Below, piece by piece: positions 6,285 to 15,339 of a stretch of DNA of 64,000 bases. The notes under the pieces were generated by a model. That model searched no databases, was not told the origin of the DNA, and saw only the letters and a program-made list of their open reading frames with translations. The position numbers and the translations under genes are program-made. The DNA lies in assembly GCA_016708565.1 (NCBI GenBank), contig JADJFN010000001.1:348863-412862 (forward strand), written 5' to 3'. Numbering within the stretch: position 1 is the first letter of the stretch; each line of letters opens with the position of its first letter. This stretch comes from Myxococcales bacterium (lineage in GTDB: Bacteria > Myxococcota_A > Polyangia > Haliangiales > Haliangiaceae).

Positions 6285-9200
6285 GTGGCTGAGCGCACCA
6301 GCACCGTGACGACGTGGGCGCTGGCCCGCGAGCTGCCGTCGGGCGCGACCACGTGGGCGCCGGTGGTGGCGCCCGAGCTGTGCGCGTTCGGCGACGGCGA
6401 CGCGCCGGCCGACGAGCTGCGCGTGTTCCTGGCCGAGCACCTGGCGACCGCGCCGGCGGCGCAGGTGGCGCGGTACTTCGTGCCGGCCGGCCTCGAGGTG
6501 GTGGCGATCGCGGTGCCGCTGGCGCCGGGGGCGCCGACCAAGCCGCGGGCGCCGCGCGACGTCGAGGTCACCTGCGTGCTCCTGCCGTACGGCCCCGAGG
6601 GCCGCGATCGCGTGGCGCTGGTGCCGGCGCTCGATGCGGCGTTCTTCGTCGATCGCAAGGAGGAGGTGGGCGAGGTGGCGCGGCGCGAGATCGCGCGGCT
6701 GTGCGCGGCCAGCGGCCTCGACGGCAACGCCTGGCGCCGCCTGCTGCCGCCGCTGGCGGCGTCGATCGAGCCGCTCGAGGTGCTGGTGCGGTTCGCGCAG
6801 GCCGAGGTCACCGGCGCCGATCGGGTCGCGGCCGAGGAGCGGCGCCGGGCCCGCGAGCGGCTCGAGGCCCACGCGGTGCCGCTGGCCGATCGGGTGCGCG
6901 GCGGCGGCGCGGCGCTGGTCGGGCGCGATCGCGAGCTGGCGTCGATGACCGCGCTGCTGGGCGGGCGCGAGCGGCTGGCGGTGCTGGTGTGCGGCGACGA
7001 GGGCGTCGGCAAGACCGCGATCGTCCTCGCGTGGGCCCGGGCCCAGCCGCAGCGCGCGGCGTGGGTGACGTCGGTGGCGCAGCTGGTGGCCGGCGCGTCG
7101 GGCTTCGGCGAGGCCGAGGCCCGGGTGGCCGACCTGTTCGCGGCGGCCGAGCGGCTCGACGCGGTCTTGTGCTTCGACGACTTCGGCAGCCTGTTCCGCG
7201 AGCGGGTCGAGGACGGCGGCCTGGGCCTGACCGCGATCGTGCGCCGGTTCATCGTCGACGCGCGGGTGCGGGTGGTCGCCGAGATCACGCCGGCGGCGCT
7301 GGAGCGCGCCGAGCGCCGCGAGGTGGCGCTGATCGGCGCGATGACCCGGCTGACGGTGCCGGCGATGGACGCCGCGGCGACGCTGGCGGTGGTGACCGGG
7401 CGCGCCGCGCACTGGCGCCGCGCCGACGCGCGCCGGCCGCAGCTCGCCGCCGCGGCGTTGTCGGTCGCGGTCGAGCTGGCGCGGCGCTACCTGCCGTACC
7501 GCGCGTTCCCCGGCAAGGCGGTGACGCTGCTCGACGATCTGCGCGCCGCGGCCGACGGCGAGGTCGGCGCCGACGGCGCGCCGCGCGAGCTGGGCCCCGA
7601 CGCGGTCTACGACGGCTTCGCCGCGGCCACCGGCGTGCCGGCGTTCCTCTTGCGCGACGATCGGGCGCTGCTCCTCGACGAGCTGATCGCCCGGCTGCGC
7701 ACGCGGATGATCGGTCAGGAGGCGGCGGTGGCGCGGGTGGCCGAGACGCTGTGCACGGTCAAGGCGCAGCTGCAGCCGGCCGACAAGCCGCTGGCGACGT
7801 TCCTGTTCGTCGGGCCGACCGGCGTCGGCAAGACCGAGCTGGCCAAGAGCCTGGCCCACCTGCTGTTCGGCTCCGAGGGGCGGCTGGTGCGGTTCGACAT
7901 GAGCGAGTACGCCGATCCATGGGCGGCCGAGCGGCTGATCCGCGGCAGCGACGCCGGCGAGGGCCTGCTGACCGCGCGGATCCGCCAGCAGCCGTTCGCG
8001 GTGGTGCTGCTCGACGAGATCGAGAAGGCGCACCCGGCGGTCCACGATCTGCTGTTGCAGGTGGCGGGCGAGGGCCGGCTGACCGACGCCCGCGGCCGCA
8101 CCGCGTACTTCCACAACGCGATCGTGATCCTGACGTCGAACCTCGGCGCCCACGGCCGGGCCGCGGCGATCGGCCTGGCGGTCGGCGCCGGCGACGACGA
8201 TCGCGCGCGCGAGCTGGCGCGCTACCGGGCCGCGGTGACCGAGGCGTTCCGCCCCGAGATGCTCAACCGCCTCGACGCGATCATCCCGTTCCATCGCCTC
8301 GACGCCGCGCAGATCGCCGCGGTCGCGGGGCTGGCGCTGGCCCAGCTCTCCGAGCGGCGCGGGCTGGTCCAGGCCAGCATCACGCTCGACGTCAGCCCGG
8401 CGGCGGCGGCGGCGCTGGCGGCCGGCGGCTACGCCCCGGCCTACGGCGTGCGCGCGCTGCGCCGCCACCTGGATGAGGCGGTGATCGCGCCGGCGGCGCG
8501 GCTGGTGGCGCGGCTGGGCAAGGACGCCCACGGCGCGCTGCTCGCGGTGCGCACCGTCGACGAGCCGGCCGCGGTCGACCTGCCGGCCGGCGCGCACCTG
8601 GGCACCACCGAGCCCGAGGCCGGCGTGGTGGTGGCGGCGTGGCGGCGCGGCGGGGCCGGCGGTCGCAAGAACGCCCGCGGCGCGCTGGCGGTGGCGGCGG
8701 TGCGGCGGGTGGCCGACACCTGGATGCGCCACGACGTCGCCACCGAGGTGAAGACCCAGATCGCGTGGCTGAAGTCGCAGCTGGCGCGCGGCGCGGCGCA
8801 GCCCGGCGGCGCGCAGGCCGGCAAGCGCAAGAAGGCGGCGCTGTCGAGCGCGCAGGTGCAGCAGATGAGCATCGAGCTGGCGCGGCTCGAGCGGGCGTGG
8901 GACGCCGCGGCCGCGGCGCAGGAGGACCTGGCCGCCGCCGAGGAGCTGGCGATCGCCGCGGCCCAGGCCGGCGACGACGTCGAGGCGGCGGTGGCGATGG
9001 CGGGGCCGCTCGAGGACGCGTTCACGACCGCGATGTTCTGGCTGGCGGTGGCGCGGCGCGAGGATCGCGACGAGATCACGCTGACCTTGTCGGCGCCCGA
9101 GCACCCGCGCGCGCTGGGCCGCTGGGTGACCGGCATGCTCGAGCTGGCGGCGGCGCGCGGCTGGACCGTGCACGCGCACCCGACGGTGGCCAAGGAGCCG

Positions 9201-15339: not shown

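Follow-up and report, generated by a model that had tools for sequence, protein, structure and literature searches.

A conserved trio of divergent Hsp100 ATPases from Myxococcota with ClpP-docking-type loops and a release-factor-like module

A three-gene Hsp100 operon and its family

The DNA considered here is a 64-kb window (the whole stretch analysed, 64,000 nucleotides) of a Myxococcales genome, positions 348,863 to 412,862 of contig JADJFN010000001.1 in assembly GCA_016708565.1. It carries three consecutive genes for paralogous Hsp100-type ATPases, which we call p1, p2 and p3; positions given for them are those of the window and all of their features lie on the forward (+) strand. The p1 gene (6285..9707) starts with GTG and encodes 1140 amino acids, arranged as an N-domain, the two ATPase rings D1 and D2, a D2-small domain and a release-factor-like C-terminal module. 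It is followed by p2 (9704..13072, 1122 amino acids), the start of which overlaps the p1 stop in the sequence GTGA, and by p3 (13069..15339, 756 amino acids), a paralogue without C-terminal extension that overlaps the p2 stop in ATGA. At both junctions the stop and start codons thus share 4 bases, and the G+C content of the region is ~77 %. A preliminary description of this DNA had concentrated on a short motif in the second rings of the three ATPases; the conservation of the trio as a unit, the degeneracy of D1 and the release-factor module of p1 went unmentioned in it and are set out here.

Gene order was examined at seven Myxococcota loci (L001-L005, L093 and L094). The trio has the same order in all seven, down to 40 % identity, with proteins of 1130-1177, 1100-1174 and 753-781 amino acids apart from one third protein of 1080, and both junctions overlap at six of the seven loci, the first junction of L093 being a 2-base gap. 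The overlapping reading frames suggest translational coupling. Seventeen contigs are apparently common to the homologue lists of all three proteins. The genes flanking the trio differ among the seven loci, and a search beside the operon at these loci for a conserved neighbour, be it a protease, an adaptor or another partner, found none. The p1-p2-p3 group is one conserved three-gene unit.

Each of the three proteins matches the Pfam families AAA, AAA_2 and ClpB_D2-small, with E-values for AAA_2 of ~1e-37 to 1e-40 (1e-39 for p1). The NCBIfam models for ClpB, ClpA, ClpV, ClpK and ClpG score 200-315 bits against curated cutoffs of 885 to 1900. The ClpA model (TIGR02639 / PRK11034), which aligns in one stretch over D1 and D2, gives 286.7, 275.3 and 261.0 bits for p1, p2 and p3 against a cutoff of 993.15, the ClpB model (TIGR03346) 282-315 bits in two stretches against 1232, and the ClpV, ClpK and ClpG models 201-230 bits against 885 to 1900. 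Because these scores are so far below the curated cutoffs, the trio falls outside every named NCBIfam Clp family. The best D2 sequence scores are to ClpB (T. thermophilus ClpB, E 3.8e-83). Current annotation of the family goes no further than 'AAA family ATPase' or 'Clp protease ATP-binding subunit'. Sequences from metagenome-assembled genomes (MAGs) of Myxococcales bacteria, which cluster with proteins 99-100 % identical to p1 and p2, bear the label 'ATP-dependent Clp protease ATP-binding subunit'.

For each paralogue 120 homologues were collected, the look-ups of p3 homologues and neighbourhoods being anchored on P0001, a protein 96 % identical to p3. The more distant orthologues are mostly labelled Kofleriaceae, and Kofleriaceae-like Myxococcota are the main hosts of this small family, relatives of which occur in Planctomycetota and Hyphomicrobium. 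Literature searches returned nothing on a fusion of PCRF with Clp or of a release factor with Hsp100, nor on a triple Clp operon in Myxococcota. The trio appears from its sequences to represent a previously undescribed Hsp100 subfamily, uncharacterised in the literature searched, with a ClpA/ClpC-like double-ring core. An anti-phage defence system was considered and rejected, PADLOC giving partial matches to the AAA core only (DolB, PDC-M37B etc., E 1e-16 to 1e-28).

The N-terminal regions set the family apart from other Clp proteins. The N-domain of p1 (6285..6899, ~205 amino acids) is homologous to those of p2 (9704-10318) and p3 (13069-13683), with hhalign probabilities of 93.7 % between p1 and p2 and 82.5 % between p1 and p3, and in the p2 model described below it adopts a confidently predicted beta-rich fold with a predicted local distance difference test score (pLDDT) of ~90. 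The N-terminal 210 residues of p1-p3 have no Pfam match at E<=5, and Clp_N is absent from scans both of these segments and of the full proteins at the same threshold; the three proteins share a novel N-domain in place of Clp_N. The M-domain, the element through which ClpB is coupled to Hsp70, is likewise absent from all three, an alignment with ClpA and ClpB leaving a gap of roughly 120 columns at its position, and the two Walker A motifs are spaced ~270 amino acids apart, as in proteins without an M-domain.

Docking-type loops and motor domains

In ClpA the docking loop lies in D2, between sensor-1 and the helix that carries the arginine finger; this segment is referred to here as the P-loop. 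The P-loop of p1 (residues 622-654, 8148..8246) contains the tripeptide IGL at residues 629-631 (8169-8177, codons ATCGGCCTG), that of p2 (residues 634-660, 11603..11683) contains IGF at 640-642 (11621-11629, codons ATCGGGTTC) within the pentapeptide PIGFG, and that of p3 (residues 613-636, 14905..14976) contains VGF at 619-621 (14923-14931, codons GTCGGCTTC). The order of elements is the same throughout: SNLG (618-621), IGL and FRPEMLNRLD in p1, SNLG (630-633), IGF and FFPPELWNRID in p2, and SNLG (609-612), VGF and FRPEFTARLD in p3. When p1-p3 were aligned with the ClpA and ClpB sequences of E. coli, the p2 and p3 tripeptides fell within one or two columns of ClpA 617-IGL-619, which itself lies between TTNAG and FTPEFRNRLD, and the p1 tripeptide a few columns before it in the same loop. 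From the sensor-1 Gly to the Phe of FxPE the loop measures 33, 27 and 24 amino acids in p1, p2 and p3 compared with 27 in ClpA, and the motif begins 7, 6 and 6 residues in, compared with 8 in ClpA. The alignment and the loop lengths bear out the claim of the preliminary description that the three ATPases carry these tripeptides at a homologous D2 position.

Conservation of the motif was counted in 113 orthologues of p1, 120 of p2 and 118 of p3. The p1 motif reads L88/I14/V7/M1 at its first position, G110 at its second and L59/I40/F5 at its third (3 sequences are gapped), the p2 motif P120, I117, G120, F120 and G119, and the p3 motif G118 and F117 after a variable first residue (A65/V13/T13/P9/I7). 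Among aligned residues the Gly is invariant in all three sets while the flanking residues vary freely, and G620 of p3 is an invariant column of alignment A1, which comprises 30 sequences 49-77 % identical to p3. The tripeptides are under strong purifying selection in each paralogue. Family-wide the forms are LG[LI] for p1, PIGFG for p2 and xGF for p3, so that the earlier assignment of IGL, IGF and VGF to the variants of ClpA, ClpX and ClpC/ClpE holds for the genome at hand and does not extend to the family.

For comparison we took the D2 loops of 62 unrelated Hsp100 proteins, found among the matches listed in a contig scan with the p3 alignment pattern GPTGVGKTE, most of which are ordinary ClpB, ClpC or ClpA loci. 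The pattern [ILVMFA]-G-[FL] occurs in 28 of the 29 with a short or absent M-domain, that is with a ClpA/C/E-like architecture, with its start invariably 7-10 residues in, and in only 6 of the 33 with a ClpB-length M-domain. Since the Gly is invariant across 113-120 orthologues per paralogue while its flanks vary, we do not regard the motif as a product of chance; it is real, positionally homologous, selected and diagnostic of ClpP-coupled architectures. In E. coli ClpX the corresponding residues are 268-IGF-270 in the context GSG-IGF-GA, and a Bacillus ClpC-type D2 loop reads KYVGF. IGF loops bind ClpP at its hydrophobic H-sites (PMC9035409). VGF is used by ClpE and ClpC, and replacement of ClpE 602-VGF-604 by GGR abolishes the interaction with ClpP in vivo, as judged by toxicity and co-localisation (PMC13125188).

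Five Hsp100 proteins of the contig scan (L029, L036, L045, L064 and L084, with Clp genes at ~10001-12000) combine a spacing of 401-406 amino acids between Walker A motifs, as expected of a ClpB-length M-domain, with a long D2 loop that carries LGF, IGF, VGF or FGF. Patescibacteria are the source of three of them, and all five may be partners of ClpP that resemble ClpC but have a long M-domain.

The motif also extends to more distant relatives in other phyla, which have xGF in the same D2 loop. Distant family members among the matches listed in the contig scan are L010, L011, L015, L020 and L021. A Pirellulaceae MAG (Planctomycetota) carries at L010 2216-11638 a comparable Clp-like tandem of long, long and short genes. 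Its D2 pore loops are shortened, and the second and third genes have xGF in the P-loop; in the first gene the P-loop pattern was not matched. A Deltaproteobacteria MAG has at L011 5548-15847 three long Clp-like genes, again with shortened D2 pore loops, and LGF in 3 of 3. Hidden Markov models (HMMs) of the Myxococcota N- and C-domains barely detect either trio.

An AlphaFold2 model of full-length p2 (mfa3882fa1622) was built from 67 aligned sequences, with a mean pLDDT of 84.9 and a predicted TM-score (pTM) of 0.51. In this model PIGFG (639-643) lies in coil between the sensor-1 strand (625-630) and a helix (646-660), and the pLDDT falls to 67-69 at PIGFG from 93 in the preceding ten-residue block. 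The motif is thus predicted to sit on a flexible loop, as expected of a docking loop, and in p2 it is not placed in the buried strand or helix that the preliminary description had named as counter-evidence. The closest structures in the PDB are chains of ClpC and ClpC1, mostly from complexes with ClpP, which occupy ranks 1-16 with TM-scores (target-normalised) of 0.54-0.77 and are followed by ClpB and then ClpA.

The motor domains of the trio depart from this familiar picture in two respects, the first of which is the state of D1. Its Walker-B motif has lost the catalytic Glu in all three proteins: p1 (7176..7181) has DD in place of DE, its orthologues reading YFDDFG, p2 (10637..10642) has DD where the orthologue consensus is ED, and p3 (13972..13977) has DR, a replacement of Glu by Arg that is kept in its orthologues. 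The D1 Walker A motif is retained except in p2 of this genome (10406-10429), where GSGRAT, with Arg for Lys, stands against an orthologue consensus of GSGKTT, apparently an additional loss of D1 function specific to this lineage. The pore-loop region of D1 is similar to the AG(A/T)KYRG segment of ClpA and ClpB, and its motif AGM-x-Y-L/F-G-x-W is strongly conserved in p2 and p3, p1 having Gly at the position of the Tyr. In D2 on the other hand all three keep both Walker motifs (Walker B reading LLDEIEKAH), the Asn of sensor-1, the NR(L/I)D Arg and the sensor-2 G(A/V)R, so that by its motifs D2 is catalytically complete and D1 degenerate.

The second departure concerns the D2 pore-1 loop, GAPPGYVG(F/Y)xxGG in ClpA and ClpB, which is 5-6 residues shorter in p1, p2 and p3. 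The shortened loop reads RGSDAGEG in p1 (7941..7964), without an aromatic residue and with a 6-column gap against GAPPGYVG(F/Y), GDRFTPDG in p2 (11396..11419), with an aromatic F that is W in the orthologue consensus, and EVGGGASS in p3 (14701..14724), again without an aromatic residue. Against the D2 of T. thermophilus ClpB, p3 shows a 6-residue gap where YVGYEE sits, and in the p2 model the loop is a short coil (565-572). Shortening is also seen in the orthologue consensus sequences, RLFGG--DGDDGRLT for p1, RLIGDRWNPEGLLT for p2 and RLIT--PSPAGTSLA for p3. The aromatic residue is kept only in p2, and degeneration of the subunits is complementary in that p1 alone lacks the D1 pore Tyr, p2 alone has the D2 aromatic residue and p3 alone shows DR at the D1 Walker-B position.

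Release-factor-like C-terminal modules

Two of the three proteins, p1 and p2, extend 360-390 amino acids past the D2-small domain. The p1 module (residues 750-1140, 8532..9704) is predicted with confidence (pLDDT 86.8, pTM 0.80) to adopt the fold of domains 1, 2 and 4 of class-I release factors, without the GGQ domain. Foldseek searches with this model gave a top 50 listed that consisted entirely of RF1, RF2, mtRF1 or PrfH, with a best E-value of 1.5e-7, and the 37 matches with E<=1e-3 all belonged to the same RF1/RF2/mtRF1/PrfH group. A profile of the module aligned with RF1 and RF2 of E. coli by hhalign at 77.8 % (E 1.9e-5, 192 columns), pairing L-G-L-E-x-G-x-H-R-F of p1 with L-K-F-E-S-G-G-H-R-V-Q-R of RF1. 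The alignment stops at RF1 residue 214, ahead of domain 3; we take this residue to be just before the start of the GGQ domain, with GGQ itself at about 233-235. No GGQ occurs in p1, p2 or p3, and it is sporadic rather than conserved in orthologues (14 of 113 for p1, 2 of 120 for p2). The PxT/SPF loop, which reads the stop codon, is shortened and not conserved in the p1 module. Compared with RF1, RF2 and PrfH, the module therefore differs in having no GGQ domain, in its shortened PxT/SPF loop and in its fusion to an AAA+ ATPase.

More direct searches with p1 did not reach the release factors. On Pfam PCRF (PF03462) p1 scores 12.3 bits against a gathering threshold of 24 bits, a search of PDB sequences with a profile of its module gave no release factor (the best match, at E 0.13, was to a coiled coil), and HMMER against 1.84 billion representatives found only members of the family. 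The p1-type module is rare: the latter search returned 233 clusters at 50 % identity (E<=1e-3), in which full-length matches of ~1030-1220 amino acids carry the module at the C-terminus. Since these searches found no release factor, the relationship is carried by the fold searches, by hhalign and by relatives that do pass the PCRF threshold, namely P0026 (57.8 bits over profile positions 2-186 of 194) and the Hyphomicrobium protein L015 (26.2 bits). P0026 (L005:10001-13243) is a p3 orthologue that keeps a C-terminal extension. Its extension and that of L021 (9833-12556) align with RF1 and RF2 at hhalign probabilities of 97.6 % and 98.3 %, both match the HMM of the p1 module, and both have a GGHR(L/V)V motif and no GGQ. 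On this combination of profile and model evidence, the p1 module is derived from a class-I release factor lacking the GGQ hydrolase domain, as are the extensions of some p3 relatives, and the distribution suggests that all three paralogues once carried such a module and that p3 lost it in the present lineage.

The extension of p2 (residues 755-1122, 11966..13069) is predicted to be helical and then alpha/beta. It folds confidently in the p2 model, and its helices and strands follow the same order as those in the model of the p1 module. Comparison of the p2 extension with the p1 module and with RF1 and RF2 by hhalign gave probabilities of 0.07-1.7 %, which are not significant, and an HMM of the extension matched that of L015 weakly, with E 0.009 in a 3-sequence database. 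A release-factor origin of the p2 extension is likely but unproven.

Candidate assemblies, partners and neighbouring genes

The trio resembles several known systems without coinciding with any of them. With ClpA it shares two AAA rings, an IGL-type tripeptide located in a ~27-residue loop between the D2 sensor-1 and the Arg-finger helix, and the lack of an M-domain; unlike ClpA it has no Clp_N, which binds ClpS, but the novel N-domain, its D2 GYVG loop is shortened, its D1 Walker-B Glu is lost, and it consists of three obligatorily linked paralogues, two of which bear C-terminal modules of 360-390 amino acids. ClpC, ClpC1 and ClpE come closest in structure to the p2 model and have a VGF/LGF-type motif in AAA2. 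They differ in possessing a coiled-coil M-domain, Clp_N and zinc or UVR elements, in a P-loop of 34-40 amino acids in the proteins sampled compared with 24-33 in p1-p3, and in the same pore-loop and Walker-B features that separate the trio from ClpA. ClpB and Hsp104 are close in D2 sequence and in the D1 pore loop, whereas they have the M-domain that p1-p3 lack; a tripeptide of the form h-G-F/L is found nowhere in E. coli ClpB and is absent from 27 of the 33 ClpB-length background proteins.

Hetero-hexameric AAA+ machines with one degenerate ring are represented by Pex1/Pex6 and by the proteasomal Rpt1-6. These machines are like the trio in having linked paralogous subunits, a degenerate ring and subunit-specific pore loops. 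They differ in belonging to other AAA clades, and for p1-p3 a hetero-oligomer is deduced from the operon. To our knowledge the characterised bacterial Hsp100/Clp unfoldases all assemble as homo-hexamers and have canonical pore loops in the ClpP-facing ring, and we know of no characterised hetero-hexameric bacterial Hsp100. The present family keeps the ClpP-docking motif and yet splits the machine into three, inactivates hydrolysis in D1, trims the D2 pore loops and adds release-factor modules, a combination of features that appears to be unprecedented.

The reading that we favour, and to which we give about an even chance, is that p1, p2 and p3 form a hetero-hexameric Hsp100 that is powered by D2 and bears docking loops of the ClpP type, with ClpP as its likeliest partner. 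According to this model, the three proteins would co-assemble into one hexamer with specialised subunits, in which D2 would be the ATPase motor and D1 a nucleotide-binding but non-hydrolysing ring with Tyr loops that hold the substrate. The docking loops, six in all (two LGL, two IGF and two xGF), would plug into hydrophobic pockets of a ring-shaped partner, most likely a ClpP encoded elsewhere in the genome, and the release-factor-derived modules together with the N-domains would select the target, possibly the ribosome. The hetero-oligomer is proposed because the genes are in fixed linkage, their reading frames overlap and the degeneration of their products is complementary; ClpP is placed first among partners because it is the only one described for such loops in the sources cited.

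Several observations weigh against this hetero-hexameric, ClpP-coupled machine. The D2 ring, which abuts ClpP, is the main translocation motor of ClpA; loss of GYVG is unexpected in a ClpP feeder because the D2 ring would have to push the substrate into ClpP, and D2 pore-1 loops of this kind are difficult to square with processive delivery to ClpP. Most p3 orthologues have A, T, P or S at the first motif position and 40 of 113 p1 orthologues have Ile at the third, in either case departing from the canonical [LIV]-G-[FL]; A, T or P occupies the first position in 0 of the 28 motif-bearing background proteins. Two of the three subunits carry 360-390-residue modules directly behind D2-small, and the p2 model, with a pTM of only 0.51, gives no firm placement of them relative to the docking face. 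Hetero-oligomerisation would follow from the structure of the operon only, and tblastn found no clpP at 14 related loci, the E. coli positive control alone being matched. Within the window itself the best tblastn match to E. coli ClpP has E = 0.24, in agreement with the earlier statement that no clpP lies nearby. The absence of a nearby clpP is uninformative, because E. coli clpA does not adjoin clpP either and none was found in flanks of up to 10 kb beside ~80 loci of other Clp-type ATPase genes. The earlier proposal that all three proteins are protease-coupled unfoldases stands in part: the position and conservation of the loop, the missing M-domain and the ClpC-like structural neighbours speak for it, and the pore-1 loops and the drift of the p1 and p3 motifs speak against it.

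A serious alternative, although we think it less probable, is that the trio is a stand-alone, non-proteolytic remodeller or segregase, acting for example on ribosomes, and that its h-G-F/L loops dock another partner or its own release-factor-like modules; in the corresponding version of the mechanism, which we hold just as tentatively, the D1 pore loops would hold the substrate and D2 would give the power. The D2 pore-1 loops shortened in every orthologue would be natural in such a machine, as would the strong conservation of AGM-x-YLG-x-W in D1 of p2 and p3, the release-factor-derived modules that are the hallmark of the family, the degenerate first residue of the p3 motif and the lack of clpP at any of the 14 related loci. 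Such loops are however known to dock the ATPase on ClpP (PMC9035409; PMC13125188), the motif tracks ClpA/C/E-like architectures in the 62 background proteins, PIGFG of p2 closely resembles GIGFG of ClpX, and no gene for an alternative partner is conserved beside the operon. That the proteins instead form three separate ClpP-coupled homo-hexamers, each with its own tripeptide variant and substrate class, is essentially what the preliminary description proposed, and we consider it unlikely. Each paralogue does have its own conserved tripeptide and a complete D2 ATPase site, and homo-hexamers are the form reported for the characterised Clp/Hsp100 ATPases (PMC9035409), but the trio is always found together, in the same order and with overlapping codons, across deep divergence; moreover a homo-hexamer of p1 or p3 would have no aromatic D2 pore-1 residue, and p2 in this genome is without the D1 Walker-A Lys. 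Finally, the tripeptides could be chance matches, or functionless vestiges of a ClpA/C-like ancestor. Loops rich in Gly and Ala are to be expected in a genome of 77 % G+C, and a rough estimate from residue frequencies gives ~0.1 occurrences of [ILVA]-G-[FLI] per protein in a loop of 25-33 amino acids. We nevertheless find this explanation highly improbable, given a Gly that is invariant and a Phe or Leu that is nearly so even in orthologues only about 45-50 % identical, next to variable flanks, the invariance of p3 G620 in alignment A1, and the recurrence of xGF in the same loop of distant relatives from other phyla.

A bolder form of the hetero-hexameric Clp machine, which we put forward as a long shot, would direct it to the ribosome: the release-factor modules would dock at the A site of stalled or damaged ribosomes, and the rings would extract a factor or the nascent chain and pass it to ClpP via the six h-G-F/L loops. 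In eukaryotes the eRF1-like protein Vms1 is paired with Cdc48, and by analogy the trio could, with equally low probability, be a fused bacterial counterpart of that pair. Should p1-p3 bind ClpP, they would make up a Clp protease of a new kind, perhaps the first in which the ATPase is a hetero-hexamer, and would help to show how strong a pore-loop grip is required for feeding ClpP; should they not, the IGF-type loop would have a second use. In either case the release-factor-derived module points to a possible link with the ribosome.

The surroundings of the operon vary. At the divergent Myxococcota locus L093 the stop of the p3 orthologue is exactly where a gene for a 1161-residue SNF2-family helicase (19223-22708) begins, which gives it the appearance of a fourth operon member. 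Among close relatives a convergent cluster downstream recurs, encoding a Ser/Thr kinase, an FHA protein and a protein of 613-709 amino acids of no assigned function; it occupies 16927-21553 on the reverse strand of the window, where it was placed by synteny with L001, and 12432-16937, 12320-16953 and 14887-19294 at L001, L002 and L004. This recurrence probably reflects lineage synteny and not functional linkage.

Upstream of p1, on the reverse strand, lie a gene for a 434-residue protein with a lipoprotein-like N-terminus (MRPLLIALLATTAALAGC; 4894-6198), the L001 orthologue of which has no Pfam match, and a gene for a large protein with Big_5 and MG2 (alpha-2-macroglobulin-like) domains (2279-4837). 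The other window genes scanned are ordinary chromosomal ones, mainly of signalling, the mevalonate pathway and transport. Close together on the reverse strand are genes for HMG-CoA reductase (33069-34469), an FMN-dependent dehydrogenase-like protein (37199-38296) and a UbiA prenyltransferase (38341-39291), a neighbourhood that looks like a mevalonate/isoprenoid gene group.

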